Assembly (NCBI GenBank): GCA_016208745.1
Contig: JACQXN010000022.1
Location: forward strand, 19,212 to 83,211
Direction: 5' to 3'
Source: Candidatus Portnoybacteria bacterium
GTDB lineage: Bacteria > Patescibacteriota > Minisyncoccia > Portnoybacterales > GWB1-42-6
Length of the DNA stretch: 64,000 bases
Shown: positions 4,399 to 58,918 of the stretch, piece by piece
How positions within the stretch are numbered: position 1 is the first letter of the stretch
Layout: the number at the start of each line of letters is the position of its first letter
Translations under genes and position numbers: made by a program
Notes under the pieces: generated by a model
Databases searched by the model: none
What the model was told of the DNA's origin: nothing
The model's input: the letters and a program-made list of their open reading frames with translations, nothing else

Positions 4399-5730
4399 TT
4401 AACGCATTCCTCTAAGTTCTTCTTTTACAATCTCGCTCTCCTGCCAAGGAATCTTTTTCCCATTTTCCACACACATCCAAACCTCTCCCCCTTTGCCAGT
4501 TAGAATAACCGCATCTCCGGCTTTCGCTAAACTCAATGCTTTTTTTATCGCTTCACGACGATCTAAAATTTCATAGACATTGGAAATTGGTAATTGGGTA
4601 TTGGAAATTCCAGATTTTATCTCCGATAAAATCTGGGTTGGGTCTTCATCATAAGGATCTTCATTGGTAATAATTACATAATCCGCGTATTCTCCAGCCA
4701 AGCGGCCTAAAGCCGCTCTTTTTGATTTATCGCGGCCGCCGCCCTGTGCGCCAAGCAAAGCAATAATTTTTCGCGGATTAAAAATTTTAAGCGCTTTGTA
4801 AGCCGATTCAAGAGAAGCCGGCTCGTGAGCATAATCAACGATAACTGTAAATGGCTGACCTTCATTAATTACTTCCAAACGGCCCGGCGCTGGTTTGGCA
4901 TTTTTTAGAGCCTCTTTTATTTTATCGACTCCGATTCCTTGCGAAATTGCTACGCAAATTGCCGCCGCAGCGTTATACATATTAACCTCGCCGATAAGAG
5001 GCGTAATAAAATTTTCACTGTTAAAATCGAATTCGGTTCTATCCGAGGCCAATTTAATGTTTGCAATTTGAAGCTTTCCAAATCCTCCCCAACCCTCCCT
5101 AAAGGGAGGGAGCGATTCCCCTCCTTTAGGAGGGGCTAGGGGAGATTTTAAAAAATACCCCATTTTTTTCGCCATTGGAATTTTCAAAAAATATTCTGTG
5201 CTCTCATCATCCAAATTATAAACTCCAATTCCGTTTTTCTTTTTCGCCACGGCTTCAAATAATTTTAATTTTGCTGCCCGATAATTTTCAAAACTGCCGT
5301 GGCGCTCAATGTGCTCGGGCGATAAATTAGTAAAAACCGCGACTGAATAATTAATGCCTTTGTGCCGATGCTGCAGAATTCCCTCTGAAGAAGTTTCAAT
5401 TACCGCGTATTTGCATCCTTCGCTAACCATTTGCCGCAATAATTTCTGCAATTTGAATCGGCCAAGCATAGTCTGCTTATAATCATTTATCCACTCCTTA
5501 TCCCTAATTCTAAAATTTACCGTTGTCGCCATGCCGGTTTTAAACCCCGCGCCCTGCAAAATCTGAGCGATTAAATTACAAGTCGTTGTTTTCCCTTTTG
5601 TCCCGGTCACGCCAATTACAATCAATTTCCGTGACGGAAAACCATACACAAGCGCGCCCAAATAAGCGAGCAACCAATGGTACCAACTAAAAATAAAATT
5701 CGGGATAAGTTTTTTTAGAATATTTTTCAT
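4399..5730 (-). CDS. Mur ligase family protein (MurE-like UDP-MurNAc-peptide ligase) with N-terminal membrane anchor
   Basis: GVTGTKGKTTT P-loop and DYAHEP motif of Mur ligases. N-terminus is a TM helix rather than a MurE N-domain. Carries an in-frame palindromic element at 5079-5149. Confidence 0.75.
   Translation of the reverse strand: MKNILKKLIPNFIFSWYHWLLAYLGALVYGFPSRKLIVIGVTGTKGKTTTCNLIAQILQGAGFKTGMATTVNFRIRDKEWINDYKQTMLGRFKLQKLLRQMVSEGCKYAVIETSSEGILQHRHKGINYSVAVFTNLSPEHIERHGSFENYRAAKLKLFEAVAKKKNGIGVYNLDDESTEYFLKIPMAKKMGYFLKSPLAPPKGGESLPPFREGWGGFGKLQIANIKLASDRTEFDFNSENFITPLIGEVNMYNAAAAICVAISQGIGVDKIKEALKNAKPAPGRLEVINEGQPFTVIVDYAHEPASLESAYKALKIFNPRKIIALLGAQGGGRDKSKRAALGRLAGEYADYVIITNEDPYDEDPTQILSEIKSGISNTQLPISNVYEILDRREAIKKALSLAKAGDAVILTGKGGEVWMCVENGKKIPWQESEIVKEELRGMR
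5079..5149. repeat. GC-rich nested-hairpin element (family A copy) inserted in-frame within Mur ligase CDS
   Basis: AAATCCTCCCC..CCCTCCCTAAAGGGAGGG..CCCCTCCTTTAGGAGGGG..GGGGAGATTTT. Translated in-frame on the minus strand as SPLAPPKGGESLPPFREGWGGF. Confidence 0.8.
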
Positions 5731-6105: not shown

Positions 6106-7194
6106 TCATCTTAAAATATTTCTTGTCGCTTTGTATATCTTGTACCACCATCTATTAAAAATGTAATTGTGCGTGCCGCAAAACGCGACTTCATACCCCC
6201 CAAAACCCTTCTTAAATCGGCTCACACCCGGCCATTTTTGTTCGTCATAACCCCAAAAATCATAATATTTACAGCCCTGATTTTTGACAAATTTTATCTG
6301 CTCCCATTGTAAAAGATGCGGCGCCATCAAACTGCGAGACTCGTTATCGGATCCGCCATGAATATAAATTGCTGTACTATTAAAAATATTTACTAAATTC
6401 GCGGCGATTGTTTTTCCTTGATATTGGGCTAAAAATAATAAATTCTCAAAATTTAACTCACCCTCGCTCTCTCTTAAAATAAGAGAGGGAATTACGTCTG
6501 TATTCTCTCCCCCTCTTAAATTAAGAGGGGGGTGGGGGGAGTTATTTCCAATTTGCAACTGCTTTCTATAATATTCTTTCTCAAAAATCTTTATCCCCTG
6601 TCTTTTTGCGGTCTGATTAAGCAAACTCCAAAATTCTTCAAAGTCTTTTTCGTTATACTCTGTCCTCCTTATTGTTACGCCTTTGCGCTGGGCAAGATTA
6701 ATATTATAACGTGTTTTCTCATGCATAGCCGCCAACAATTCTTCTTCACTTCTATCCAAATTTAAAATCAGAGTCCTGCTTGGCTGGATATCTTTTGTTT
6801 TTGAAAAACCCAACCCCCTTAAATCCTCCCTACTTATTTCAAAAGTCGGCTCGATTCTTAAAAATATCGCATTTTCTTGTTTAGCTAGATGTTTAACTTC
6901 CCGTAAAAAGCCCTGCATTCGCAGGAGATTCATCTCCGCCCGATGGCGGATCAGAATGGCATCTCGTGTTAATTCTGAAATTATTAGAGGGCCTCGCGGG
7001 CAATACAGATAGCTTTTCCCCAGCGGTAAATTATATTTAATTATTAAACCTGCCCAATCTTTGCCTTTCAGGAAAAAAGTTTTTCTCCCTAATGATTTCT
7101 GAAACTCCGCCCATTCTAAAGACTGCAAAAAACCGCCGCCTTGCTTCAAAACAAACTCATTCCAATCCTCTTTTCCGCCTTCATAAATAGCCAT
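6106..7194 (-). CDS. FemAB-family peptidoglycan interpeptide-bridge aminoacyltransferase
   Basis: FLQSLEWAEF N-terminal and LLQWEQIKFVKNQGCKYYDFWG C-terminal motifs typical of FemABX. Likely ATG at 7194 (track start 7239 is TTG). Contains an in-frame repeat at 6457-6541. Confidence 0.75.
   Translation of the reverse strand: MAIYEGGKEDWNEFVLKQGGGFLQSLEWAEFQKSLGRKTFFLKGKDWAGLIIKYNLPLGKSYLYCPRGPLIISELTRDAILIRHRAEMNLLRMQGFLREVKHLAKQENAIFLRIEPTFEISREDLRGLGFSKTKDIQPSRTLILNLDRSEEELLAAMHEKTRYNINLAQRKGVTIRRTEYNEKDFEEFWSLLNQTAKRQGIKIFEKEYYRKQLQIGNNSPHPPLNLRGGENTDVIPSLILRESEGELNFENLLFLAQYQGKTIAANLVNIFNSTAIYIHGGSDNESRSLMAPHLLQWEQIKFVKNQGCKYYDFWGYDEQKWPGVSRFKKGFGGYEVAFCGTHNYIFNRWWYKIYKATRNILR
6457..6541. 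repeat. GC-rich hairpin element (family B copy) inserted in-frame in FemAB CDS
   Basis: TCTCTCTTAAAATAAGAGAG and CCCCCTCTTAAATTAAGAGGGGGG hairpins. Encodes SPHPPLNLRGGENTDVIPSLILRESEGE inside the ORF. Confidence 0.75.
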
Positions 7195-7231
7195 ATTCTT
7201 AATGGCATTGTAGCGTAAAAAAATCCGAAAG

Positions 7232-7262
7232 ACAAACAAAAAAGGCAGTTATGACTGCCTTT
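7232..7262 (-). terminator. Rho-independent terminator for gene 7261-7671
   Basis: Hairpin AAGGCAGTtatgACTGCCTT followed on the minus strand by a T-run. Confidence 0.5.
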
Positions 7263-8277: not shown

Positions 8278-8288
8278 AATCTATTTTT

Positions 8289-8377
8289 TCCTCCTCCCCT
8301 CAGATGAGGGGAGGATTGAGGTGGGGTGCTGAAAAACACCACCACCCCCTGCCCCCTCCTCAACTGAGGAGGGGAAG
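8289..8377. repeat. GC-rich hairpin element (family B copy), intergenic
   Basis: CCTCCTCCCCTCAGATGAGGGGAGG..GAGGTGGGGTG..CCCTCCTCAACTGAGGAGGGG. Near-identical to 45667-45799 except for an internal ~50 nt indel. Confidence 0.7.
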
Positions 8378-8429
8378 AAAAAATTAAATAGTTTCTGCTT
8401 TCAGTATACCTCCCGCCCGCGCGAAATTC

Positions 8430-8745: not shown

Positions 8746-8842
8746 ATTACGTCTCCTCTGTGAGTTTTTAATGCCTGAAAATAATAAATAAAACGAACTA
8801 TCTAGCGAATTGAATTAATAATTGTATACCATAAACCAATTT

Positions 8843-10921
8843 ATGTCAACCTTCAAGCTCCGCGCACCATTTCGCCCAACAGGTGACCAGCCAGGCGCAA
8901 TAAATGCACTAGTTAAAAATTTAAAGACTGGCATTAAGCATCAGACGCTTTTGGGTGTGACAGGAAGCGGCAAAACTTTTACTATGGCCAATGTGATTGA
9001 GAAAAATCAAAAACCAACATTGGTTATTTCGCATAATAAAACTTTGGCGGCCCAGCTTTATCAGGAATTTAAAGAGTTTTTTCCGGAAAACGCCGTGCAT
9101 TTTTTCGTCTCCTATTATGACTACTACCAACCCGAAGCCTATATCCCCCAAACCGACACCTATATTGATAAAGACGTAAAAATCAACGATGAAATTGACC
9201 GCCTGCGCCACGCCGCCACGCAGGCGCTTTTAACCAGAAATGACACGATTGTTGTGGCTTCAGTTTCTTGCATTTATAATATCGGCTCGCCAGAAGAATA
9301 TCAGAATTTGAGTTTAGAGTTTAAGAAAGGCCAATTTTTGAGCCGCCAGAAATTTTTAAGGCATTTAATATCTCTGCAATACCAGCGATCGGATGTTGAT
9401 TTCAAAAGAGGCACATTTAAAGTCCGGGGCGATTTAATTGAGGTCTGGTCAGCCACTGGCGAACAAATATTAAAATTTGATTTTTTTGGCAATCAGATAG
9501 AAAAAATATCAGAAATCAATTTGCCCAATAATATTTTAAAAGCAGACAAGGAAAAAGAAGTTAAACAGGCAAGAGTTTTTCCGGCTAAATACTGGGTCGC
9601 GCCAGAGCAGAAATTGGGCTTAGCAATAAAAAATATTAAATTGGAGCTTGAAAACCAGCTGGAAAAATTAAAAAGACAGAATAAAATTCTTGACGCCGAA
9701 CGGCTTAAGCGGCGCACCAACTTTGACCTTGAAATAATCAAAGAAACCGGCTATTGTCACGGCGTTGAAAATTATTCACGGCATTTGGAATTTCGCAAAC
9801 CCGGCGAGCCGCCTTTCACCTTATTGGACTATTTTCCAAAAGACTATTTATTGATTATTGACGAATCGCACATGACTGTTCCCCAGCTTAACGGAATGTA
9901 TTTTGGCGACCGCTCGCGCAAAGAAACTTTAATTGAGTATGGCTTCCGCTTGCCTTCGGCGCTTGATAACCGACCGCTTAAATTTAATGAGTTCGAGAAA
10001 AAGGTTGATCAAGTTGTCTATACTTCGGCAACGCCCAGTAAGTACGAAATCGAGAAATCAAAGTCTGTCTGCACGAAAAAAAATCCTCCCCATCCCTCCT
10101 CCGTATCAAGTACGGGGCAAGCTCTAAAGGGAGGGAGTGATTCCCCTCCTTTAGGAGGGGCAAGGGGAGATTTTTGCATCATCCAGCAGCTCATCCGCCC
10201 CACTGGCCTGCTTGATCCGGCAATAGAAATCCGTTCAACTAAAAATCAAATTCCACATTTAATCAAGCAAATCAAAGAAACGGTCGAAAGTGGTGCCAGG
10301 GTTTTAGTAACAACAATTACCAAACGCCTCTCCGAAGACTTATCGGAATATTTGCAAGAGCAAGGAATAAAAGCCCAATATCTGCATTCTGAAATTAAAA
10401 CATTGGAACGACCGGAAATTTTGAAAGATTTAAGACTTGGCAAAATCGACGTTTTGGTTGGCATTAATCTTTTAAGAGAGGGGCTGGATTTACCAGAAGT
10501 TGGGCTGGTGGCAATTTTGGATGCTGACAAGGAAGGCTTTTTGCGCAATGACACAACGCTTATCCAAACAATGGGCCGCGCTTCTCGCCATCCGCAAGGC
10601 CGCGTTATTATGTATGCTGACAAGATTACCCAATCAATGAAACGCGCAATTTCTGAAACCAATCGCCGGCGCAAAATTCAGGAAAGCTATAATAAAAAAC
10701 ATAAAATCACGCCCCAGCCAATTAAAAAAGGCATCCGGCCAAGCATTGTAGAAATTACAAAAATGCCAAAAGGAGCGCTAAAAACTGAGAAAGAATATCT
10801 GGAAGAATACATTAAGGAGCTTGAGTTTAAAATGGAACTGGCTAATCGGAATTTGCAATTTGACGAAGCAATGAGACTGCAAGAACAAATTAATAAATTA
10901 AAAAGGGCGACGAAAAAATAA
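8843..10921 (+). CDS. uvrB: Excinuclease ABC subunit B (UvrB) with ~33 aa in-frame palindromic-element insertion
   Basis: GVTGSGKTF Walker A, helicase motifs, C-terminal UVR domain. Segment CTKKNPPHPSSVSSTGQALKGGSDSPPLGGARGDFC interrupts the conserved ELEKS...RPTGLLDP region. The track start at 8822 is TTG; the ATG at 8843 is more likely. Confidence 0.9.
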   Translation: MSTFKLRAPFRPTGDQPGAINALVKNLKTGIKHQTLLGVTGSGKTFTMANVIEKNQKPTLVISHNKTLAAQLYQEFKEFFPENAVHFFVSYYDYYQPEAYIPQTDTYIDKDVKINDEIDRLRHAATQALLTRNDTIVVASVSCIYNIGSPEEYQNLSLEFKKGQFLSRQKFLRHLISLQYQRSDVDFKRGTFKVRGDLIEVWSATGEQILKFDFFGNQIEKISEINLPNNILKADKEKEVKQARVFPAKYWVAPEQKLGLAIKNIKLELENQLEKLKRQNKILDAERLKRRTNFDLEIIKETGYCHGVENYSRHLEFRKPGEPPFTLLDYFPKDYLLIIDESHMTVPQLNGMYFGDRSRKETLIEYGFRLPSALDNRPLKFNEFEKKVDQVVYTSATPSKYEIEKSKSVCTKKNPPHPSSVSSTGQALKGGSDSPPLGGARGDFCIIQQLIRPTGLLDPAIEIRSTKNQIPHLIKQIKETVESGARVLVTTITKRLSEDLSEYLQEQGIKAQYLHSEIKTLERPEILKDLRLGKIDVLVGINLLREGLDLPEVGLVAILDADKEGFLRNDTTLIQTMGRASRHPQGRVIMYADKITQSMKRAISETNRRRKIQESYNKKHKITPQPIKKGIRPSIVEITKMPKGALKTEKEYLEEYIKELEFKMELANRNLQFDEAMRLQEQINKLKRATKK
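10081..10172. repeat. GC-rich nested-hairpin element (family A copy) in-frame in uvrB
   Basis: ~85 percent identical over 92 nt to 42961-43054, with the same outer AAATCCTCCCC/GGGGAGATTTT and two inner hairpins. Confidence 0.85.
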
Positions 10922-35152: not shown

Positions 35153-36523
35153 TTAAATACTATAAAATCTTTCTTTAATTAAATTAATTTCTTGTTGTAG
35201 GGATTCGTTTTTTTGTAGCTCTCTATTTAATTTTTCACAAGCATACATAACAGTTGTATGATCTCTGCCGCCTAACTTCTCACCAATAAAAGGAAAGGAG
35301 CTTTTTAATTCCTCCCTGATTAAAAACATAGCTACTTGTCTTGGCCAGACTAACTCTTTTTTACGACAACGATTAATTAGGTGGCTAGTGTTTATATCGT
35401 AAAATTCTGATACTGCCTGAAGAATAACTTTATAACTTATTTTTTTAGAAGGAGGTGAGGTAATGCCGGTTAGTATTTTTGAAATTTGCTCCAATGACGG
35501 CAGGGAGCCGCTTAATTTAAGGGTAATCATTACTCTATTTAATGCTCCTTCAAGCTCCCTGATATTTTTTTGAATATTGGCAGCGATATAATTTAACACC
35601 TCATCGCTTATTTGAAGATTTTTTTCGTAACACTTTGCTTTTAATATAGCGATTCTTGATTCTAAATCAGGATAGCTGATATCAGCGATCATTCCCCCTT
35701 CAAATCGTGATTTTAATCTTTCTTCAAGCGTTGAGATAGCTTTGGGCGGCCGATCAGAACTTATAATTATCTGTTTATTGTTTTGATATAAGGCGTTAAA
35801 GGTATGGAAGAATTCTTCCTGAGTTTTTTCTTTGCCGGATAAAAACTGAACATCATCAATAATTAAGACATCGATTTTTCGGTAACTATTCTTAAATTCC
35901 TCCATTTGCCCATTATAAAGGGCAGCGACTAGCTCATTGGTAAATTTTTCAGAACTTGTATAGCAGATTTTTTTCTCGTTTTTAAAGTTTTTAACTATTT
36001 CGTTGCCAATTGCTTGGATAAGATGGGTTTTGCCCAGCCCCACCCCGCCATAAATAAATAAGGGGTTATAGAGCCGGCCAAGGTTTTTAGTTATTGCTTG
36101 GGCAGCCGCTTGGGCCAATTCATTGAACGAACCGACAATAAAATTATCAAAAGTGTATTTTGGATTAAGGTGGGTCTCTTTGTTGATCTCAAGCTCTTGG
36201 AAAGACTGATTGACAATTTCGGTTTCTTTCCGTCTGGGAGGAGTTGATCGTCCAGGCGTTGCCAGTTCTGGCAAGGAAATCGCGGCAATGACAAATTCAA
36301 CCTCTTTTACTTCAGGTAAAATATTTCGCAGAGCTCTTAATATTAATTTATTGTATTTATTCTCCAGCCACTCTTTAGAAAAAGCATTAGGGACGCCGAC
36401 TGTCGCGGCGCCTTCTCTGGTTTTTATTACATCGGTGTTCCGAAACCAAGTAATAAAGTTTGTCTTGGAAATATTGAGTTCAATTTCCCCTAAGGCAGCT
36501 TGCCAAAGCTCGTGGTTGGTCAT
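35153..36523 (-). CDS. dnaA: Chromosomal replication initiator DnaA
   Basis: GGVGLGKTHL Walker A, AAA+ motifs, C-terminal DnaA-box-binding HTH; 456 aa. Confidence 0.92.
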   Translation of the reverse strand: MTNHELWQAALGEIELNISKTNFITWFRNTDVIKTREGAATVGVPNAFSKEWLENKYNKLILRALRNILPEVKEVEFVIAAISLPELATPGRSTPPRRKETEIVNQSFQELEINKETHLNPKYTFDNFIVGSFNELAQAAAQAITKNLGRLYNPLFIYGGVGLGKTHLIQAIGNEIVKNFKNEKKICYTSSEKFTNELVAALYNGQMEEFKNSYRKIDVLIIDDVQFLSGKEKTQEEFFHTFNALYQNNKQIIISSDRPPKAISTLEERLKSRFEGGMIADISYPDLESRIAILKAKCYEKNLQISDEVLNYIAANIQKNIRELEGALNRVMITLKLSGSLPSLEQISKILTGITSPPSKKISYKVILQAVSEFYDINTSHLINRCRKKELVWPRQVAMFLIREELKSSFPFIGEKLGGRDHTTVMYACEKLNRELQKNESLQQEINLIKERFYSI

Positions 36524-42960: not shown

Positions 42961-43054
42961 AAATCCTCCCCAACCCTCTCCCCGTATCAAGTCCGGGGCA
43001 AGCTCTAAAAGGAGAGAGCGATCCCCCTCCTTTAGGAGGGGTTAGGGGAGATTT
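42961..43054. repeat. GC-rich nested-hairpin element (family A copy), intergenic
   Basis: Near-identical to the uvrB-internal copy at 10081-10172. Confidence 0.8.
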
Positions 43055-43065
43055 TAGCTAGTCTC

Positions 43066-45026: not shown

Positions 45027-45128
45027 AGAGAAATTTTAAAAATTAAAAGTATGCGTTAGCGTGTGAAAAAATAAATTAATGTTATGACGTCCGACATCGA
45101 TAGAATTCTGGTTTTTAAAATTATGTAT

Positions 45129-45167
45129 AAAATCCCCCTTAATCCCCCTTTAAAAAGGGGGAGATAG
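45129..45167. repeat. GC-rich hairpin element (family B short copy), intergenic
   Basis: aaaatcccccttaatCCCCCTTTAAAAAGGGGGagat; 39 nt near-identical to 56052-56090. Confidence 0.7.
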
Positions 45168-45639: not shown

Positions 45640-45666
45640 TTATTGTGGGCTACGAAACACTCTTTT

Positions 45667-45799
45667 CCTCCTCCCCTCAGATGAGGGGAGGATTGAGGTG
45701 GGGTGATGATTATTCGCGTGGACGCATTTGCATGAATTCGCGCCATTTAAATGCAATCAACACCACCCCCTACCCCTCCTCATCTGAGGAGGGGAGGAG
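45667..45799. repeat. GC-rich hairpin element (family B copy with ~50 nt internal palindromic insert), intergenic
   Basis: Same termini as 8289-8377 (CCTCCTCCCCTCAGATGAGGGGAGG ... CATCTGAGGAGGGGAGGAG). Confidence 0.7.
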
Positions 45800-47638: not shown

Positions 47639-47687
47639 TAGAATAAATTAAAAAGTAAAAAAAGAATTATAAGCGTTATCCCCCTCT

Positions 47688-47773
47688 TTATAAAAGAGGG
47701 ACTAAGGGGGATTTATATTGAAGACTATTTTTAAAATCCACCCCAGCCCTCCTTTTTTAAAGGAGAGAGCAGG
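47688..47773. repeat. GC-rich hairpin element (family B copy) separating the two VirB4 ORFs
   Basis: Reverse-complement relative of the element at 56006-56090. Lies between the stop at 47777 and the ATG at 47638, which are in the same frame; the intervening 138 nt contains stops. Confidence 0.75.
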
Positions 47774-47776
47774 CCA

Positions 47777-48409
47777 TTATACATTAATAACCGGCCTTTC
47801 TCTGGCGCCGGGGTTATACATTTTATAAAGAAGCTCAACTAATTCATCGTCATTTAGGGCAACTGTTTTTAAACTGCAGGCAGAGAGTCCGGAAGATATG
47901 TATTCCATTCTTTGCCAAAGGCCGGCGCGCATCTGTTGGAAAGTTGGGAGCTTTGTTTCCCCGTTTTTTTTGCCAAACGATTTTTTCATCTTTTCAATAA
48001 GACCGGTGGCTTGTTTTTCAATGCTTTGGGTAAAGGGCACGATGACATAAAAATAAGTGCTCATAATATTAACCATTTGCGATAAATTTTTCACAAAATC
48101 AATATATTCGCTCGTTTGGATTTTTAAAAGCTCGTTTTCCTGTTCAACTCTTTTTTGTTCCAAGGTTTTTAAATAATCAGAAACATCAAATTTTCTGGTT
48201 GAGACCAGAATTTGGATTGGAAAATCAAGCGAGTTTAAAAATTCCTGATAACGATAAGTGATGGCTTCCTGCTCTTCGCTGGATTTTAAAGAGAAATTAA
48301 GAGAGCCGATCATCAAAACCCCCTTTAAAGAGCCGTCTTTCATTAAGATAGCGCCTTCTTTGATTTCAGTGACTGGGATTTTTTTTTTTTTTCTTGCGCC
48401 CTGATTCAT
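47777..48409 (-). CDS. VirB4-family ATPase N-terminal domain (separate ORF); contains A14 tract at codons 6-10
   Basis: GAILMKDGSLKGVLMIGSLNFSLKSSEEQEAI...PIQILVSTRKFDVSDYLK matches the N-domain of Gram-positive VirB4 (Tn916 Orf16/PrgJ-like). T14 on the plus strand at 48379-48392. Confidence 0.7.
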   Translation of the reverse strand: MNQGARKKKKIPVTEIKEGAILMKDGSLKGVLMIGSLNFSLKSSEEQEAITYRYQEFLNSLDFPIQILVSTRKFDVSDYLKTLEQKRVEQENELLKIQTSEYIDFVKNLSQMVNIMSTYFYVIVPFTQSIEKQATGLIEKMKKSFGKKNGETKLPTFQQMRAGLWQRMEYISSGLSACSLKTVALNDDELVELLYKMYNPGARERPVINV

Positions 48410-48432
48410 AAAGTTAATTTAAATATCAAATT

Positions 48433-48497
48433 GTCATTCCTGCGAAAGCAGGGATCCAGGTTTTATGAGTCTGGATTCCCGCTTTCGCGGGAATGAC
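48433..48497. repeat. Family C hairpin repeat (GTCATTCC-TGCGAAAGCA-GGGATCC / GGATTCCC-GCTTTCGC-GGGAATGAC)
   Basis: Internal hairpins CCTGCgaaaGCAGG and TCCCGCtttcGCGGGA with outer GTCATTCC/GGAATGAC inverted repeat. Relatives at 56371-56462 and 56878-56900. Confidence 0.65.
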
Positions 48498-48553
48498 ATA
48501 GAATGTTCTAGGGATTTTGTTGATGTCAGACGTCAGCAGATTAATTGCCTAAT

Positions 48554-48859: not shown

Positions 48860-48911
48860 AACTCAAATATCAAAGCACGATTTCACGCTTGGTAATATTA
48901 TCGGTCTTCGG

Positions 48912-48982
48912 AAATCCTCCCCAACCATCCCTAAAGGGAGGGGGTTGTTCCCCTCCTTTAGGAGGGGTTAGGGGAGATTTTA
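48912..48982. repeat. GC-rich nested-hairpin element (family A copy), intergenic
   Basis: AAATCCTCCCCAACCATCCCTAAAGGGAGGG..CCCCTCCTTTAGGAGGGGTTAGGGGAGATTTT. Confidence 0.8.
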
Positions 48983-49041
48983 AAAGCAGCATTGTTTGGC
49001 TGACGGAAATGTTTTAAGCCTCGAGCTTTTAATTTCTAATT

Positions 49042-53959: not shown

Positions 53960-54942
53960 TATTTAAGATTTTTTTTAAGGTTGTTTATTTCCATTGTTAT
54001 TTTTTCAGACGCCGAACCGCTTTTCTGGTATTCTTCTATGGCGATTAAGGCTTTCAGCGGATCTTCCTGAGCATTGCTTATAACCAAGAAAACATTACTG
54101 CTATGAAGCATTGTTGATAAAAGAGTCTTTTGGAATTCAGCATAAAATTTGGGCGTTGAAATGTTTTTTAATTTTTCATAGGATTCATGGAAAGTTTTTT
54201 GCGCTATTTTAACTTTTGAAAAATCACTATTTGTCATAGCCCATTCGATATCCTGGTCTGAGACCTGAATATTTTTTGAGTTTTCTTTGATAATATTTAA
54301 AACAGCAGTTAAATAGGCAATTCTGTCTTCGTTCCTATCGCTTTGGGAAATTTTTATGTCGTTATCGGTTATGCTGGGCGGCAAAACTTTTTTTAATTCC
54401 TCATTGCTTATATTTTGGAGCATTTTTTGAAATTCCGGCATATTCTCAAGCTCTTCTGCGCTATACATTTCGCCTGTGTCTGGATTTATAAGTACGCTTT
54501 TGCCTTGTTTTATGCCTCCGCCTATTCCTTTTGCAAAAATTTCGGTCCAGTTATTTGTGCTAGCTAATATTTTTTCTTTTTCGCTAAAACCAGTTTGAGC
54601 ATTACTGCCTTTTTGCATTGGGTTGTAGCCAGACGCCACTTCTTCGCCGTCCAAATATCCATCGCCATCAGAATCTTGATTATTGATATCTGTTCCGTAT
54701 TTTGCTTCTTCCCAATCTCTTAAGCCATCGTTATCAGAATCTTTAAATTTGTCTTTTATAGCCGAAGTTACAGAAGCAGTTCCTTTGCCGATTTTTTTAA
54801 AAAGATTTATAGGATTAAATTTTCCTTCGGCGTAAAAAAAACTGCCAAAAACCAATAGTAAAATTAGCAGTATCACGCCCGCTGCAAAAATACTTTTTTT
54901 TCTGTTCTCAAGCATACCCAGTATATCAACTTCCAGAGCCAA
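53959..54942 (-). CDS. Membrane-anchored protein with thrombospondin type-3-like Ca-binding repeats
   Basis: DSDNDGLRDWEE and DSDGDGYLDGEE motifs after an N-terminal TM; 327 aa. Confidence 0.5.
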   Translation of the reverse strand: MALEVDILGMLENRKKSIFAAGVILLILLLVFGSFFYAEGKFNPINLFKKIGKGTASVTSAIKDKFKDSDNDGLRDWEEAKYGTDINNQDSDGDGYLDGEEVASGYNPMQKGSNAQTGFSEKEKILASTNNWTEIFAKGIGGGIKQGKSVLINPDTGEMYSAEELENMPEFQKMLQNISNEELKKVLPPSITDNDIKISQSDRNEDRIAYLTAVLNIIKENSKNIQVSDQDIEWAMTNSDFSKVKIAQKTFHESYEKLKNISTPKFYAEFQKTLLSTMLHSSNVFLVISNAQEDPLKALIAIEEYQKSGSASEKITMEINNLKKNLK

Positions 54943-55234
54943 GCGCCGCTTTCTTGTGGCGCCTGTATTCTAAAAGTCTTAAACCTAAAAATCTACGACC
55001 CTGAGTGGTTTTCAAATAATGCTCTCGGCGCTTGGCATCTTCTTGATTAAGACAGCCTTCAAAATATATTAACTTGAACGGTAATCGGAATTTTGTAGAG
55101 AAAGATAATCCCTTATTATGTTCTTCTATTCTTTTTTTAAGATTAGCGGTATAGCCAACATAGCAATCTTTATCTTTTAGGCTCTCTAAAACATAAACCC
55201 AGAAGAACATACTGGAAGTTGTATTACTGGGCAT
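54926..55234 (-). CDS. GIY-YIG nuclease family protein
   Basis: FFWVYVLESLKDKDCYVGYTANLKKRIEEHN (GIY...YIG motif); 102 aa. Confidence 0.75.
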   Translation of the reverse strand: MPSNTTSSMFFWVYVLESLKDKDCYVGYTANLKKRIEEHNKGLSFSTKFRLPFKLIYFEGCLNQEDAKRREHYLKTTQGRRFLGLRLLEYRRHKKAALGSGS

Positions 55235-55264
55235 AGAATTTATTAACTTAATTTTAACACAGAT

Positions 55265-55306
55265 TTATCCACAAAAAAATAACCGATTTTCAGTCAGTTA
55301 TCCACA
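55265..55306. promoter_or_regulatory. Two perfect consensus DnaA boxes (TTATCCACA) in direct orientation
   Basis: 55265-55273 and 55298-55306. Followed by three CAATAACCA-like direct repeats (55279-55350) in an AT-rich spacer. Confidence 0.45.
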
Positions 55307-55412
55307 ATTAGGGAAATGCAATAACCAATAATCAAAAAACAATAACCAGGCAAATTTTAATAATCAATTTTTCAATATTCAGATTATTTTAGTCCGATGC
55401 CGGATTTCTCTA

Positions 55413-55739
55413 TTATTGAAGAAGAATTCTTTTTAGCTCGTCGGCCTCCTTTATTAGGGGCTGGATTTCTTTAGATAAGCCTTCGTTTGTTTCTGATATC
55501 AATATCAACCAATAGATTGTTTCTTTCGCCTCTTTTCTTGCTATTCTTAGTCGATGGACAAAGTCCTTTTTACTCAACGCGTCATTAGCTTCTATATAAT
55601 TTGCTCCGATTGAAGTTCCCGCTCGAAAGCCCTGCCGGATTAATTCTATATTGATTATGTTTTTTTGCAGAATCTTACATGCTCTAGCCATCTTTTTGCT
55701 AAAATCAAGCGTTCTTTCTTCTAAATCAAAATTATGCAT
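55413..55739 (-). CDS. Four-helix-bundle protein (TIGR02436; 23S rRNA intervening-sequence protein family)
   Basis: GTSIGANYIEAN and AKETIYWL motifs; 108 aa. Confidence 0.75.
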   Translation of the reverse strand: MHNFDLEERTLDFSKKMARACKILQKNIINIELIRQGFRAGTSIGANYIEANDALSKKDFVHRLRIARKEAKETIYWLILISETNEGLSKEIQPLIKEADELKRILLQ

Positions 55740-55796
55740 ATTGTTTCGGTTATTGTTTATTTGTCTATTGATTATTATTTGGAGCTTGTTTTTTGG

Positions 55797-56792
55797 TTAT
55801 TGGTTATTTAAATTTAATTCCTTCGTTATCCTTGTCCAATCTTCAGCTCTCAATGTTTCTGCCCTTTGGCTTGGCGAAATACCAGCTTTTTTTAAGGCCT
55901 CTTCAACTATTTTGCGGTTAATTTTTAACCCTTTTGTTAAGTTACCGGCTAATTGTTTGCGGGGAGCAGAAAAACCGGCGCGGACGACTTTAAAAAAATC
56001 ACTTGCCCCCTCCTTTTTAAAGGAGGGCTGGGGTGGATTTTCTTTTTCTACAAAATCCCCCTTAATCCCCCTTTTATAAAGGGGGAGATGGCTTTTTGGT
56101 ATAATCTTAATTATCGCCGAATCGACTTTTGGTTGCGGCCAGAAACAGCTTTTGGAAACATAATGCAAAATTTTTGGCTGGGCGTAAAATTGCACCGAAA
56201 CCGCCAAGAGACTCATTTCGGGCGGCTCGGCACAAATTCTTTGGGCTACTTCTTTTTGTACCATTAAAATCATTTCGCTTGGCGGATTATTTGATTCCAG
56301 AAACTTTCTAATAACGGGCGAGGTTATATAGTAAGGAAGATTGGCGACGAGTTTGTAATTATATACTTTTGTCATCCCGGGCTTGAACCGGGATCCAGAC
56401 GTCGTTCCTGCGAAAGCAGGGATCTGCTCATTATCCTGGATTCCCGTTTTCACGGGAATGACAAAAAGCGAGGTAATTGGAAATTTCAAGGCATCGCCTT
56501 CTATAATCTCTGCATTTCCATAATCTCTTAGTGTCTCTTTTAAAATTTGAATCATATTTCTCCCTTTTTCAATTGCGATAACCCTTTTTGCTTTTTTGGC
56601 TAATTCTTGTGTTAGCGTGCCAAGGCCCGGTCCAATTTCCAAAATCGTGTCGGCTTTTTTTATTTGTGCGGCTTCAATAATCTTATCTAATATATTTTTG
56701 TCAATTAAAAAATTCTGACCAAGCTGTTTTAGGGGCGTGGTGCCATATTTTGATAGCAGATATTTAATTGTTTGCGCGGATAAAAGGTTCAT
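55797..56792 (-). CDS. rsmA: 16S rRNA (adenine1518/1519-N6)-dimethyltransferase RsmA/KsgA carrying two in-frame repeat-element insertions
   Basis: SAM motif ILEIGPGLGTLT, NLPYYITSP catalytic motif, PQPKVDSAII. At 331 aa it is ~50-60 aa longer than typical KsgA. Confidence 0.8.
   Translation of the reverse strand: MNLLSAQTIKYLLSKYGTTPLKQLGQNFLIDKNILDKIIEAAQIKKADTILEIGPGLGTLTQELAKKAKRVIAIEKGRNMIQILKETLRDYGNAEIIEGDALKFPITSLFVIPVKTGIQDNEQIPAFAGTTSGSRFKPGMTKVYNYKLVANLPYYITSPVIRKFLESNNPPSEMILMVQKEVAQRICAEPPEMSLLAVSVQFYAQPKILHYVSKSCFWPQPKVDSAIIKIIPKSHLPLYKRGIKGDFVEKENPPQPSFKKEGASDFFKVVRAGFSAPRKQLAGNLTKGLKINRKIVEEALKKAGISPSQRAETLRAEDWTRITKELNLNNQ
56006..56090. repeat. GC-rich hairpin element (family B copy) in-frame in rsmA
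   Basis: CCCCTCCTTTTTAAAGGAGGG..ctggggtggatttt..aaaatcccccttaatCCCCCTTTATAAAGGGGGagatgg. Encodes ...KGDFVEKENPPQPSFKKEGA... inside KsgA. Confidence 0.75.
56371..56462. repeat. Family C hairpin repeat in-frame in rsmA
   Basis: GTCATCCCGGGcttgaaCCGGGAT..CCTGCgaaaGCAGG..GGATTCCCGttttcaCGGGAATGAC. Encodes FPITSLFVIPVKTGIQDNEQIPAFAGTTSGSRFKPGMT between DALKF and KLVANLPYY. Confidence 0.75.
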
Positions 56793-56805
56793 TCTAAAGA
56801 GAAAA

Positions 56806-56972
56806 TTATAAATCCAAAATCCTAAACTCTAAATAAACTCAAAATTCAAATGTTCTAAATTTAAAACTTCTGATTTTGTCATTCCGGCGAAATCCGGACT
56901 CTAGGTTCGTTTTAGATTTTGGATTTTGGTTATTGGGATTTGTTTAGAGTTTAGGATTTAGAATTTAGGGTT
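56806..56972. repeat. ~165 bp imperfect palindrome around a family C-like mini hairpin
   Basis: AAATCCTAAACTCTAAA at 56819-56835 and its exact reverse complement at 56942-56958. Second arm pair AAATCCAAAATCC/GGATTTTGGATTT. Centre is ttgtcattCCGGCgaaatCCGGa. Confidence 0.55.
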
Positions 56973-56974
56973 TT

Positions 56975-58918
56975 TTAGAAATCGTATTCTCCAAACTCTT
57001 CCGGCTCGCCAATTAAGTCTATGAGATGCTTTGGTATATCAAATAAAAACCTTGAGGGCGGATTGACTTGGATGCTGCCATATAAGTTTCTTTGCTGGGC
57101 AAAAGTTAAAAAAAGCTGTTCTTTGGCGCGCGTTATGCCAACATAGCAAAGCCGCCGTTCTTCCTCCATTTGCCAAACATCCATCATTGAGCGGGAATGC
57201 GGAAACAGGCCTTCTTCGCAGCCGATAATAAAAATCACGGGAAATTCAAGACCCTTGGCGCAATGAAGCGTCATTAGATTAACCAAGTCTTTTTGTGTTT
57301 CCACGTCATCATGATTTGACATTAGCGCTACTTCTTCCAAAAAAGAGGATAAACCTTCTTGGGGGCTTAGCGCGTCATATTTTTTGGTCACTGAAAAAAG
57401 TTCCTCAACATTTTCCCATCGGCAATCCCCCTCTGGCGAGCCGTCTCGCAAATAATTTTCCAATCCGATTTTTTTAATGACTTGCTTTAGGGTTTGCGAA
57501 AGAGGTAGAATTTTTGCGGTTTCTCTTAAGTCAGAAATTAAATCCTGAAAGTCTTTTAGGGCTTTGGTTTTTCTTGGGGTGAGCTCTGATATGAGTGCTT
57601 CACTTGGCCGGGTTAATAAATCAACAGCTCGCTTATCTTTTCCCAGCCCCCGCGGCGGCAAGTTGATGATTCTTTCAAGGCTTAGCGCATCTTGCGGGTT
57701 CTGGATAAAGCGCAGATAGGCGATTAGGTCCTTAATTTCCTTGCGTTCATAAAATTTAAGCGTGCCGATAACTTTATAAGGAAAGCCGAATTTCAAAAAC
57801 GCTTCTTCAATTGCCCGCGACTGGGCATTGGTGCGGTAAAGCACAGCAAAGTCCTTAAAGGATAATCCCCTTTTTGATTTCTGGCGGCTGATTTCCTGAA
57901 TAACAAACTGGCCCTCATCTCCCTCATCTTTGGCGGCAAAAAAAGTTATTTTGTGGCCGGCAGAATTTTCTGTCCAAAGCTGTTTGTCTTTGCGATTGAT
58001 ATTTTTTGAGATGATTGCCTGGCTAGCATCTAAAATGTTTTGGGTGGAGCGATAGTTTTGTTCTAAAAACACTAGTTTTGCTTCGGGGTAATCCTTTTCA
58101 AAATTTAAGATATTGCGGAAATCCGCTCCCCGGAAAGCATAGATTGACTGGTCAAAATCGCCGACCGCGCAAATGTTCCGGTTTTTGGCAGCCAAAAGAT
58201 TAACAAAGACATATTGAGCATGGTTTGTGTCCTGATATTCGTCAACTAAAAGATATTTAAAGCGATCTTGATATTTTTCCAGAATTTCGGGGTGGTCTTT
58301 AAAAAGTTTATTTGCCAACATCAGCAAGTCATCAAAATCCATTGCATTGTGACTTTTGAGGCCGGCCTGATATTTCTCGTAAACTCTTGAAACTATCTGC
58401 TGAAAATATTCAGCGCCTGACTGGCTGTAGAGTTTTTGATCTATGAGTTCGCTTTTGGCTTGCGAGATTATAGCTTGGATTGTCTGGGGTTTAAATTGTT
58501 CTTGAGAAATTTCCAAATCAGCCATCACCTTTTTTACTAAAGCCAAGCTGTCTTTGTCGTCAAAAATGACAAAATCCTTTTTATAGCCCAAAAGCTCTGC
58601 TTCTTGACGCAGAATTCTGGCGCAAATTGAATGGAACGTGCCAACTAAAGGCAGGTGAGCCGGCGTTTGGGGCTTAGCAAATTGATTATAAGCCAAAAGT
58701 TTTTGCAGGCGTTGCTTCATTTCGTCGGCTGCCTTATTGGTAAAGGTGACGGCCATTATGCTTTGTGGCGCCACCCCCTGTTCTATTAAATAGGCAACGC
58801 GGTGAGTCAGGACTTTTGTTTTGCCAGAGCCCGGACCAGCCACAACCAAAATCGGGCCTTCGGTTGTAATCACGGCCTCGCGTTGTTTTTCGTTAAGAGA
58901 GTTTATAATAGAAGACAT
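56975..58918 (-). CDS. pcrA: ATP-dependent DNA helicase, UvrD/PcrA/Rep family
   Basis: AGPGSGKT Walker A, helicase motifs II-VI; 647 aa. Confidence 0.85.
   Translation of the reverse strand: MSSIINSLNEKQREAVITTEGPILVVAGPGSGKTKVLTHRVAYLIEQGVAPQSIMAVTFTNKAADEMKQRLQKLLAYNQFAKPQTPAHLPLVGTFHSICARILRQEAELLGYKKDFVIFDDKDSLALVKKVMADLEISQEQFKPQTIQAIISQAKSELIDQKLYSQSGAEYFQQIVSRVYEKYQAGLKSHNAMDFDDLLMLANKLFKDHPEILEKYQDRFKYLLVDEYQDTNHAQYVFVNLLAAKNRNICAVGDFDQSIYAFRGADFRNILNFEKDYPEAKLVFLEQNYRSTQNILDASQAIISKNINRKDKQLWTENSAGHKITFFAAKDEGDEGQFVIQEISRQKSKRGLSFKDFAVLYRTNAQSRAIEEAFLKFGFPYKVIGTLKFYERKEIKDLIAYLRFIQNPQDALSLERIINLPPRGLGKDKRAVDLLTRPSEALISELTPRKTKALKDFQDLISDLRETAKILPLSQTLKQVIKKIGLENYLRDGSPEGDCRWENVEELFSVTKKYDALSPQEGLSSFLEEVALMSNHDDVETQKDLVNLMTLHCAKGLEFPVIFIIGCEEGLFPHSRSMMDVWQMEEERRLCYVGITRAKEQLFLTFAQQRNLYGSIQVNPPSRFLFDIPKHLIDLIGEPEEFGEYDF

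Follow-up and report, generated by a model that had tools for sequence, protein, structure and literature searches.

Does a ksgA gene that carries two in-frame palindromic repeats still encode a working KsgA, and if it does, on what terms are the repeats kept? The question is raised by a 64,000-nucleotide stretch of DNA (hereafter the window) from Candidatus Portnoybacteria, a member of the CPR/Patescibacteria, in which the KsgA frame is single and stop-free over 331 aa and specifies a protein identical to MBI4709346.1 (NCBI; Candidatus Portnoybacteria MAG). The answer we favour, at a probability of roughly 0.8, is that an intact ksgA has been struck twice by small hairpin repeats, which are kept as tolerated disordered loops.

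The Pfam model PF00398 (RrnaAD) matches the 331-aa ORF with an E-value of 1.3e-57 (195 bits, against a curated cut-off of 24), and KsgA of B. subtilis matches it with an E-value of 3.6e-51 (phmmer), as do KsgA entries in the PDB. An AlphaFold2 (AF2) model with a mean pLDDT of 86 (above 90 in the core) has the two-domain fold, a Rossmann domain plus a helical C-terminal domain, and is matched by Foldseek to 6ift, the B. subtilis enzyme (E 3e-29; TM 0.86 normalised to target). Among columns judged invariant or nearly invariant on alignments of 29 and 120 homologues, the protein keeps E52, G54 and G56 of the SAM-binding motif I (ExGxGxG), D100 of motif III, N151-P153-Y154 of the catalytic motif IV, and the basic R278-K279-Q280 of loop14 in the C-terminal domain. 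Judged from its sequence, this is an intact 16S rRNA A1518/A1519 dimethyltransferase gene with a probably active product. No sense-strand terminator created by the inserts was found in ksgA. A search of positions 55500-57100 against Rfam at a permissive E-value detected neither a known RNA family nor an intron or riboswitch; the matches obtained there were sub-threshold eukaryotic miRNA hairpins only. An intein or intron as the source of the inserts was separately ruled out because of their size, the missing motifs, the collinearity and the fact that they recur in independent assemblies.

The extra length is confined to two places, since the alignment of B. subtilis KsgA splits in three (query 9-109, 148-232 and 256-323), with an excess of ~26 residues at site 1 and ~20 at site 2. 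Compared with orthologues that lack inserts, the protein is longer by ~30 aa at site 1 (43 aa versus a median of 13) and by ~22 aa at site 2 (36 aa versus 14). An earlier note on this DNA had claimed two independent in-frame insertions, drawn from two different families and missing from canonical KsgA, within a gene that is still one 331-aa ORF. All of this is borne out: the B. subtilis alignment breaks at both sites, the inserts match separate dispersed intergenic repeats (families C and B), and the frame is intact. The positions given for the inserts in that note, 56371-56462 and 56006-56090, were right to within a few bases. The features are collected in the table.

Features of the ksgA locus and of repeat copies elsewhere in the window (positions are those of the window)
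Feature	Position	Strand	Description	Basis
ksgA/rsmA ORF	55797..56792	-	331 aa including both inserts; stop codon 55797-55799	ORF list
Promoter-like TTTAGA-17-TATAAT	56805..56833	-	just 5' of ksgA start codon	consensus scan only
Site-1 insert, family C	56371..56462	-	V111 to M140/T141	orthologue codon alignment, blastn to intergenic copies
Unit a, TGTCATTCCCGTGAAAACGGGAATCCAG	56436..56463	-	sense to ksgA	SRM regex match, exact dRS3, 3 mismatches to 28-nt NTS
Unit b, CGTCGTTCCTGCGAAAGCAGGGATCTGC	56400..56427	+	antisense to ksgA, CGTC-tagged	5 mismatches to NTS
Unit c, TGTCATCCCGGGCTTGAACCGGGATCCAG	56370..56398	+	antisense to ksgA	SRM regex match, inverted-repeat pair
Site-2 insert, family B	~56006..56087	-	~L236-A263	blastn, palindrome fold, six-copy alignment
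B hairpin 1, TCCCCCTTT-ATA-AAAGGGGGA	56066..56086		perfect 9-bp stem	
B hairpin 2, CCCTCCTT-TAAA-AAGGAGGG	56008..56027			
Intergenic family C copy, inverted dimer	48432..48498		TGTC tags outermost	fold z -8.7
Single family C unit	56877..56904	+	ksgA upstream spacer	
Intergenic full-length family B copy	47678..47772	+		
Intergenic family B half copy (hairpin + tag)	45121..45165	-	89% identity to B element	
Small single-domain GIY-YIG protein	54926..55234	-	102 aa; 560 bp downstream of ksgA	Pfam GIY-YIG 7.6e-16

Site 1 separates motif III (GDALK) from motif IV (NLPY). Three CGTC/TGTC-tagged REP units make up its insert, a mosaic with inverted ends GTCATTCC...GGGATGAC in which units a and c together form the outer inverted repeat. 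Unit a reads TGTC-ATTCCCGT-GAAA-ACGGGAAT-CCAG at 56436-56463(-), while unit b is found in orthologue L003, occurs as a variant in L001 and is absent in L002. The palindrome fold of the insert beats 200/200 shuffles (z -4.6), and pLDDT in the AF2 model is below 50 at aa 116-135. Because 92 nt, the distance between the inverted ends, is not divisible by three, neither the precise unit that was inserted nor a target duplication can be delimited.

Family C, which the earlier note had not placed, is a CGTC/TGTC-tagged REP and belongs in one family with dRS3/NTS of Neisseria and RPE-6 of Rickettsia. The published CGTC-1 REP consists of a CGTC (or TGTC/CCTC) tag, an 8-bp stem starting from AT, a 4-nt loop and a short CCA-type tail, and CGTC-1 equals dRS3 and RPE-6 of Rickettsia conorii (PMC3733652); the units described here show the tag, an 8-bp AT-initial stem, a GAAA-type 4-nt loop and a CCA tail. 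They also fall within the definitions of dRS3 (core ATTCCC-N8-GGGAAT; PMC11893778, PMC3733652), of NTS (CGTCATTCCCGCGMAVGCGGGAATCYRG with at most 1 mismatch, or the degenerate SRM motif; PMC11893778) and of SRM, with 4 SRM matches against 0.05 expected. Units a and b of ksgA have 3 and 5 mismatches to NTS, and a and c fit the SRM regex; an intergenic unit has 1 mismatch.

Site 2 is the linker joining the Rossmann domain to the C-terminal rRNA-binding domain. Its insert is an inverted dimer of a unit made of a C-rich hairpin plus the tag AAGGGGGATTTT, with a variable spacer between the two halves; the palindrome fold again beats 200/200 shuffles (z -4.5), and pLDDT is below 50 at aa 241-257. 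In orthologue L001 a CCCCGTATCAAGTACGGGG hairpin module is nested within the loop of B hairpin 2. Family B is a previously undescribed hairpin repeat, distinct from family C: a literature search for its sequences or peptides returned nothing relevant, and its peptide profile, run against 5.8 billion proteins, matched no host proteins, only 'hypothetical proteins' of 39-72 aa, which are spurious ORFs on stand-alone copies.

Both families are dispersed. Within the window, family C amounts to six units at three places, namely one dimer, one trimer and one singleton; the singleton sits in the middle of a 173-nt imperfect palindrome (56802-56974). The C element in ksgA is 80% identical to intergenic DNA at 48433-48498 in both orientations (blastn, E 4e-11), where the unit at 48471-48498(-), TGTC-ATTCCCGC-GAAA-GCGGGAAT-CCAG, is one position off the Neisseria NTS consensus, and the B element is 76% identical to 47678-47778 (blastn, E 5e-15). 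The window's UvrB has a clean 36-aa insertion coincident with a repeat, and its MurE likewise carries an in-frame repeat. Beyond the window, exact copies of the 27-nt C arm are present in at least 120 genome stretches (0.002 expected by chance), which span more than 12 phyla and include two Rickettsia genomes and six CPR classes. Long stop-free frames enclose 34 of the 143 C-arm matches, a few of them confirmed as real genes, a proportion that we do not use as a rate because most lie in high-GC genomes, in which such frames are common. The family B tag lies within ORFs for GatB, PEP carboxylase, ScpA, Der, a tRNA synthetase and an Mfd-like helicase on metagenome contigs, and an SRM-like insert was found in Rickettsia IleS (locus L058).

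On the reading we favour, non-coding hairpin repeats that populate intergenic DNA would have entered ksgA twice, once from family C and once from family B, each adding what appears to be a multiple of three bases with no stop in the frame used. Because of this length and the stop-free frame, translation of the inserts is the most likely outcome, giving disordered loops of ~30 aa and 22-27 aa. The first loop would extend the connection between beta3 (motif III) and beta4 (motif IV), at the sheet end distal to the catalytic pocket, and the second the linker between the Rossmann and C-terminal domains, both being positions that would accept extra length. The KsgA elements that contact rRNA are loop1, loop12, loop14 and the beta6/7 linker (bioRxiv 10.1101/2021.09.15.460497), and neither insert site falls among them. 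In the predicted structure, the inserts are at surface-loop positions compatible with the KsgA fold. We infer that enzyme activity is retained and that the inserts are neutral, and suggest that a high flux of repeat insertion, combined with purifying selection removing those insertions that break frame or fold, would yield the observed pattern.

Relatives provide a broader view of the two sites. Conservation among relatives, which the earlier note had raised, was assessed in the 120 nearest homologues, whose KsgA ranges from 269 to 386 aa: a long insert (at least 12 extra aa) is present at site 1 in 29/120, at site 2 in 24/120 and at both in 13/120. B. subtilis KsgA, orthologues P0011, P0013 and P0095, and about three-quarters of the closest relatives are without the inserts. 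Both positions are length-variable across the family in homologue alignments, and at least 6 unrelated repeat-peptide families occupy them among these 120 homologues, which argues that sites 1 and 2 are permissive hot spots; orthologue L125, for example, has family B at both. Strong tolerance, which the earlier note had proposed, is supported, in that disordered loops are set on a confidently modelled core with invariant catalytic and SAM motifs, at length-variable positions where relatives hold unrelated repeat families.

Between orthologues, third-codon-position identity is 77-81% in the inserts but 43-48% in the rest of the gene (Fisher P 0.0003-0.006), which argues that the inserts are not evolving as neutral coding filler. 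Substitutions in the inserts hit loops and spacers, whereas the stems keep their pairing, with compensatory changes from C-G to T-A and from C-G to G-C; nested insertions and deletions of interior modules make the peptides differ from one orthologue to the next. The site-1 insert is kept in four orthologues whose core DNA is only ~66-69% identical. The C-bearing orthologues share identical junctions, yet form an exclusive clade in 0/200 bootstraps (neighbour-joining, 236 core columns); since that tree is weakly resolved, it leaves undecided whether site 1 saw one gain followed by losses or several gains. A scenario of one ancient insertion and passive drift thereafter fits poorly with the third-position conservation and with C-bearers that form no clade.

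A bolder interpretation is that the two KsgA loops are recurrent landing pads of active, targeted insertion and turnover in CPR, going beyond mere permissiveness, which we consider unlikely. Pointers in its direction are that at least 6 families enter the same codon in different lineages, that elements are swapped or nested in each other's hairpin loops with the frame kept, and that element DNA stays near a pan-bacterial consensus while saturation has been reached at the host gene's synonymous sites. If this interpretation were true, a hairpin-specific ssDNA enzyme, Ssn-like GIY-YIG or other, would keep rewriting repeats into essential genes, a process that would contribute greatly to differences in protein length across CPR bacteria.

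We think it quite improbable that the hairpins are kept for a function at the DNA or RNA level, or by active maintenance, with the peptide as a by-product. They might be targets of Ssn-type GIY-YIG enzymes that modulate recombination or transformation, sites of recombination or gene conversion, or mRNA structures affecting ksgA expression. The excess conservation of insert DNA over the synonymous sites of the host gene, the compensatory pairing of stems and the exactness of the 27-nt arm across more than 12 phyla all speak for such a function, as does the report that SsnA binds and cuts the cognate Neisseria repeat, modulating transformation (Chenal et al. 2025, PMC11893778). However, active master copies that inserted recently or repeatedly would also leave near-consensus DNA, and no locus-specific role is needed because many orthologues are without inserts or have unrelated families.

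A small GIY-YIG gene 560 bp from ksgA, ~1.1 kb from the ksgA units, also favours a nucleic-acid function, its 102-aa product being possibly related to the Ssn nucleases, which cleave ssDNA at CGTC/NTS hairpins, and sharing 32% identity over 65 aa with an NTS-adjacent GIY-YIG protein in locus L073. Published ssn genes belong to cd10448 (GIY-YIG_unchar_3) and are flanked by repeats (PMC11893778), whereas no repeat units or hairpins flank the gene at 54926-55234 and an NCBIfam search gave its product no subfamily assignment. Homologues were near repeats at 2/120 C-arm loci and 2/120 B-tag loci (tblastn), with no enrichment, and no small GIY-YIG ORF was picked up with a motif regex. We treat a connection of the GIY-YIG gene with the repeats as no more than a lead, because few homologues lie near repeats, flanking hairpins are lacking and there is no subfamily assignment.

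Co-option, which the earlier note had also entertained, would mean that the peptides are functional in CPR KsgA, for example by contacting the unusual CPR 30S subunit or partner proteins. The recurrence of long inserts at these two sites in 20-24% of the nearest homologues, the retention of the site-1 insert in four orthologues so divergent in core DNA, and a site 2 that adjoins the rRNA-binding C-terminal domain are what such a role would lead one to look for. Nevertheless, we judge it very unlikely, given that at least 6 unrelated families with unrelated peptides occupy the same site and close relatives have none, that both inserts are modelled as disordered and lie outside the published rRNA-contact loops, and that interior modules come and go while the same elements recur in many unrelated proteins; what is conserved is the DNA palindrome and not a peptide motif. 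An artefact of mis-assembly at repeats, or a ksgA pseudogene in the course of being lost, is barely credible even for a MAG, a source in which short repeats can mislead assemblers, and for the reduced genomes of CPR, because each insert is flanked on both sides by collinear in-frame KsgA sequence, the same junctions and UvrD-ksgA synteny recur in independent assemblies from other samples (L001, L002, L003 and L125), and the stop-free 331-aa frame has all family-invariant residues.

Seen as tolerated, repeat-derived loops, the inserts have several implications. Repeat inserts go far towards explaining why KsgA length varies so oddly in CPR, and annotators and structure predictors can take low-confidence loops with VIPAKAGIQ or PLYKRGIKGD as repeat-derived. 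The 'protein-coding palindrome' phenomenon is tied to the CGTC/dRS3/NTS repeat, whose cognate ssDNA nuclease was described in 2025, and the excess conservation of insert DNA, together with recurrence at the same codon, offers a handle on how CGTC repeats move.

How these elements relate to known repeat systems differs from system to system. MITEs are defined by terminal inverted repeats (TIRs) that match a parent IS and by target-site duplications. Families B and C resemble MITEs such as Correia/NEMIS, ERIC and RUP in being small, non-autonomous repeats with inverted ends (TTTTGTCAT.../...ATGACAAAA), sometimes forming in-frame fusions, but a TIR match to a parent IS in the window and a target-site duplication could be shown for neither family, and none of the latter was discernible at the insert junctions by orthologue comparison. 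They share with the GTAG REPs, BIMEs and REPINs that go with RAYT transposases an organization of short tagged hairpins in inverted dimers and mosaics, although the tag differs, and no RAYT or IS200-like gene was seen adjoining the repeats here. CGTC elements are reported to have no dedicated transposase.

With RPE-1 of Rickettsia (Ogata et al. 2000, 'Selfish DNA in protein-coding genes'; summarised in PMC10969869), the likeness is one of concept: RPE-1 is a palindromic repeat of ~100-150 bp that lies in-frame in unrelated genes, where the fold and function of the host protein allow it, and has its own conserved peptide, whereas the KsgA inserts are shorter and unrelated to it in sequence. Neisseria dRS3/NTS/SRM repeats (PMC11893778) are closer, with the exact dRS3 core, a hairpin and a spread across phyla in common; only 2% of NTS copies in N. 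meningitidis lie within genes (PMC11893778), whereas here three units are in-frame within one essential-type gene.

The closest likeness is to CGTC-1/RPE-6 (Ogata 2002; Di Nocera 2013, PMC3733652), which also form inverted dimers and clusters and lie in-frame in housekeeping genes, encoding 20-30 aa or more. Intragenic CGTC and GTAG REPs encoding 20-30 aa, including two in one ORF, are already documented (PMC3733652), which lowers the novelty of the present case, and uvrB is a published host gene of intragenic REPs (PMC3733652; PMC10969869). The 2013 REP survey covered five phyla, CPR not among them (PMC3733652), and a literature search for CPR/Patescibacteria together with MITEs or palindromic or in-frame repeats returned nothing relevant. 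The in-frame hairpin repeats in KsgA are thus a new example of a phenomenon known from Rickettsia and other bacteria, and with them CPR/Patescibacteria join the lineages with in-frame palindromic repeats in housekeeping genes, which published surveys had shown for Rickettsia and other bacteria in five phyla, none of them CPR. Unlike the reported CGTC-1/RPE-6 cases, the host here is a CPR bacterium, the host gene encodes KsgA, and the insert is a three-unit mosaic in whose hairpin loops orthologues nest further modules.

Against Pfam RrnaAD the ksgA/rsmA product reaches 195 bits (cut-off 24), which identifies it as a KsgA/RsmA dimethyltransferase; its top solved relative is Bacillus subtilis KsgA (E 3.6e-51), and its sequence is the same as that of NCBI MBI4709346.1, which comes from a Candidatus Portnoybacteria MAG (95-kb contig). 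The phmmer alignment to the B. subtilis enzyme splits into three blocks (query residues 9-109, 148-232 and 256-323), with 38 query residues against 12 in B. subtilis between the first and second blocks (site 1) and 23 against 3 between the second and third (site 2). Site-1 insert DNA has matches at intergenic 48433-48498 (both orientations, 80% identity, E 4e-11) and at 56874-56905, while site-2 insert DNA matches intergenic 47678-47778 (76%, E 5e-15), 45121-45165 (89%) and weaker copies; as palindromes, both fold better than 200 of 200 shuffles (z -4.6 at site 1, -4.5 at site 2). These DNA matches and folds, with the alignment gaps, bear out the two extra in-frame segments claimed in the earlier note, the coordinates it gave and its assignment of them to two different element families; neither insert aligns to conserved KsgA regions. 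The gene is intact, and each insert is a copy of a dispersed hairpin-repeat family, C at site 1 and B at site 2 (see table). A promoter-like TTTAGA-17-TATAAT lies immediately 5' of ksgA, and no sense-strand terminator was found to have been created in the gene.

The ksgA gene and the hairpin units of its two inserts
Feature	Position	Strand	Detail
ksgA/rsmA ORF	55797-56792	-	331 aa, uninterrupted; from ORF list
Site-1 insert (family C), unit a	56436-56463	-	TGTCATTCCCGTGAAAACGGGAATCCAG
Site-1 insert (family C), unit b	56400-56427	+	hairpin unit
Site-1 insert (family C), unit c	56370-56398	+	hairpin unit
Site-2 insert (family B), hairpin 1	within about 56006-56087		TCCCCCTTT-ATA-AAAGGGGGA, then tag TTAAGGGGGATTTT
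Site-2 insert (family B), hairpin 2	within about 56006-56087		CCCTCCTT-TAAA-AAGGAGGG, preceded by inverted tag AAAATCCACCCCAG

The site-1 insert, which runs from GTCATTCC to GGGATGAC (56462 down to 56371), holds three hairpin units. A literature search with a DNA string of family C led to Chenal et al. 2025 (PMC11893778), where the Neisseria dRS3 repeat is defined as ATTCCC-N8-GGGAAT and the 28-nt NTS as CGTCATTCCCGCGMAVGCGGGAATCYRG, together with a degenerate 'Ssn-related motif' (SRM). Exact dRS3 matches occur in the window at 56440-56459 and 48475-48494, the NTS occurs with one mismatch at 48471-48498 and in four further units with 3-5 mismatches, and the SRM regular expression has four matches where first-order Markov simulations predict 0.05, although the match at 36262-36293, inside another ORF, looks like chance. 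The same sequence type has been classed as CGTC-tagged REPs, arranged mainly as dimers of units with a tag that is often TGTC, an 8-bp stem starting AT, a 4-nt loop and a CCA tail, CGTC-1 being the dRS3 of Neisseria and the RPE-6 of Rickettsia conorii (Di Nocera et al. 2013, PMC3733652); the window's family C units match this description at every position. When one genome per species was scanned, at least 120 stretches matched the 27-nt arm GTCATTCCNGCGAAAGCNGGRATCCAG, where ~0.002 are expected by chance, and the matches listed cover Alpha-, Beta- and Gammaproteobacteria, Desulfobacterota, Chloroflexota, Bacteroidota, Nitrospirota, Planctomycetota, Acidobacteriota, two Rickettsia genomes and six CPR classes. 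Family C is therefore a known, extremely widespread hairpin repeat.

The site-2 insert reads as hairpin 1 and tag, a variable spacer, then inverted tag and hairpin 2, which makes the family B element an inverted dimer built from a 'hairpin + tag' unit. Six copies aligned from three genomes are near-identical in stems and tags and differ only in loops and spacer, apart from one stem pair that changes from C-G to T-A on both sides. The exact 22-nt hairpin-tag junction is present in at least 120 metagenome contigs; no description of family B, as DNA or peptide, was found in the searchable literature.

An AlphaFold2 model (120 homologues; mean pLDDT 86, 241 residues >90) superposes on B. subtilis, T. 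thermophilus and E. coli KsgA with target-normalised TM of 0.86-0.91, and its pLDDT falls below 50 in the inserts (residues 116-135, 241-244 and 246-257) and otherwise only at the last three residues of the protein. Site 1 is modelled between the strands at 94-98 (motif III, GDALK) and 147-151 (motif IV, NLPY), and site 2 between the last Rossmann domain strand (225-232) and the first C-terminal domain helix (260-273). Going by class I methyltransferase topology, the site-1 connection presumably leads into the motif-IV strand at its N-terminal end, away from the catalytic pocket. All residues of the SAM-binding and catalytic motifs are intact. Neither site is among the rRNA-contacting elements named from cryo-EM of B. 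subtilis KsgA-30S, namely loop1, loop12, loop14 (R236-K237), loop15 and the beta6/7 linker (bioRxiv 10.1101/2021.09.15.460497), and R278-K279, the counterparts of the loop14 residues, are invariant.

Protein length varies from 269 to 386 aa in the 120 closest homologues, all of which come from CPR-type sources. The baseline is 8-13 aa for site 1 and 13-16 aa for site 2; an excess of at least 12 residues is present at site 1 in 29 homologues, at site 2 in 24 and at both sites in 13. The inserts occupy length-variable positions, modelled as disordered, that lie outside known functional surfaces. The extra peptides belong to at least six unrelated repeat-type families, VIPAKAGIQ.. (family C), PL.KRGIKGD..PP..KEG (family B), SLRG.SEATDEAIQ..PRNDE, VTKPVSF.GNGY..RDRNG, HPERSASEE..FAQND and IPGLHPDDTD, and others are also present. 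Seven ksgA relatives were compared at the DNA level, two of which (L001 and L002) share the UvrD-ksgA synteny and are therefore orthologous loci. The site-1 C element is common to L001, L002 and a third locus, L003, with junctions as in the window (..TTT/GTCATTCC ... GGGATGAC/AAA..) and interiors that differ by whole hairpin modules; one module, CCCCGTATCAAGTACGGGG, lies in the site-1 interior and, in L001, also within the hairpin 2 loop of the family B element. The site-2 B element is common to L001 and the window, and both inserts are absent from L004 (encoding P0011) by DNA comparison and from P0013 (encoded at L126) by protein alignment. At locus L125 (P0004; 111-1100) both sites are occupied by family B elements, the one at site 1 beginning at the 12th codon after the motif-III aspartate, the same codon as the window's C element. 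Since different families occur at the same sites across relatives, the sites are not family-specific and behave as permissive hot spots. Other homologues have inserts behind the helix that comes before motif I, and within the loop12 region in P0018 (371 aa) and P0064, so insertion is not strictly confined to these two sites. Some CPR KsgAs have much larger repeat-derived regions, such as P0009 (377 aa) with 89 aa at site 2. In L001 (3001-4161, encoding P0002), extra hairpin modules are nested in loops of both C and B elements; the called start of P0002, probably mis-called, adds a 34-aa N-terminal extension.

Other genes carry comparable segments. UvrB (8822-10921, +) has a clean 36-aa in-frame insertion relative to Bacillus UvrB (aa 417-452, about 10070-10177), coinciding with a 90-nt repeat at 10088-10177 whose family copies lie at 5063-5152, 42969-43058 and 48895-48984, the first of these in-frame and coincident with about 24-30 extra residues near aa 173-220 of a MurE-type Mur ligase (4399-5730, -); uvrB is a documented REP host in R. 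conorii (PMC3733652). A FemAB-family ORF (6106-7239, -) contains a perfect 10-bp C-rich hairpin, CCCCCTCTTAAATTAAGAGGGGG, at 6509-6531, which may be another in-frame repeat. Among 125 exact family B tag matches listed from metagenome contigs, 16 fall well inside long open frames, and all ten frames checked are real genes, for an O-methyltransferase, GatB, ScpA, a family 9 glycosyltransferase, PEP carboxylase, a class I tRNA synthetase, an Mfd-like helicase, Der GTPase, a C26 peptidase and a beta-helix protein. An IleS-like ORF (L058 859-4269, -) of the Rickettsia endosymbiont of Polydrusus tereticollis carries in-frame sequence of family C type ('..DSRLRGND..'; '...HSREGGNPEKK...LDSRLRGNDTEK...'), as is typical when CGTC/NTS units are translated; the neighbouring 1.5 kb holds three exact family C arms. 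The two families of the ksgA inserts occur within many unrelated proteins.

Of the window's 14 repeat copies, about 5 lie within genes, all of them in-frame; with 86% of the window coding, intragenic copies are depleted. Of the six possible frames, three are free of stop codons in the C element and two in the B element, so a sizeable share of random insertions could survive. We consider it likely (probability roughly 0.8) that frequent insertion filtered by selection explains the pattern, as proposed for Rickettsia RPEs (PMC10969869) and intragenic REPs generally (PMC3733652). Surviving inserts would be transcribed and translated as loops, with the KsgA enzyme still working despite them. Third-codon-position identity between orthologues is 43-48% in the KsgA core but 77-81% in the inserts (one-sided Fisher P 0.0003-0.006). 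In neighbour-joining trees of 236 core columns, C-bearing KsgAs never formed an exclusive clade (0 of 200 bootstraps), and among them only P0002 and P0003 pair (84% bootstrap). Near-consensus copies may have entered the same site repeatedly, or gene conversion, or selection on the hairpin, may hold an old insert near consensus. Co-option of the peptides is unsupported, given unrelated families at the same sites, empty sites in close relatives, loops modelled as disordered and interior modules that turn over.

Further repeats were noted in the window. The UvrD-ksgA spacer (56802-56974) is a 173-nt imperfect palindrome with 66-nt arms (73% complementary) of AT-rich TTTGGATTTTGG-type motifs that recur in spacers at 18450, 19243 and 60403, and a single CGTC-type unit (56877-56904) lies at its centre. 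Intergenic 8286-8378 and 45663-45798 share a 47-nt segment, TTTTCCTCCTCCCCTCAGATGAGGGGAGGATTGAGGTGGGGTG (98% identity), and a second hairpin, CCCCTCCTCA.CTGAGGAGGGG; these make up another family of C-rich hairpin repeats. A small gene (47777-48409, 210 aa) lies between a complete family B copy and an inverted dimer of family C (47678-48498), a layout reminiscent of Neisseria mosaic intergenic regions. Directly 3' of ksgA, 54926-55739 (-) holds a 102-aa GIY-YIG ORF and a 108-aa ORF for a four-helix-bundle '23S rRNA intervening sequence protein' (TIGR02436). CGTC elements have no dedicated transposase (Di Nocera et al., PMC3733652), and Chenal et al. (PMC11893778) linked Ssn GIY-YIG ssDNA nucleases to CGTC-type elements. 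The window encodes one single-domain GIY-YIG protein, the 102-aa one, 560 bp downstream of ksgA and 32% identical to an NTS-adjacent GIY-YIG protein of a gammaproteobacterial MAG; NCBIfam models assigned it to no subfamily, no repeats were found flanking its gene, and GIY-YIG homologues showed no enrichment near family C or B copies at the loci listed. This protein is possibly a relative of the Ssn nucleases, which we offer as a lead only.

Novelty here is limited to four points: the CPR lineage, KsgA as a host gene with its two hot spots quantified, a second, undescribed repeat family (B), and insert DNA conserved beyond synonymous sites. CPR are not mentioned by Chenal et al. (PMC11893778) or Di Nocera et al. 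(PMC3733652), and a literature search combining CPR/Patescibacteria with MITE, palindromic or in-frame repeats found none. The closest known system is the intragenic CGTC-1 REP, that is, RPE-6: CGTC and GTAG REPs have been found inside known genes, with dimers or groups of units encoding 20-30 aa or more, two inserts per ORF are on record in R. conorii uvrB and O. terrae uvrA, and recB of two Xanthomonas species carries different REPs at about the same site (Di Nocera et al., PMC3733652).
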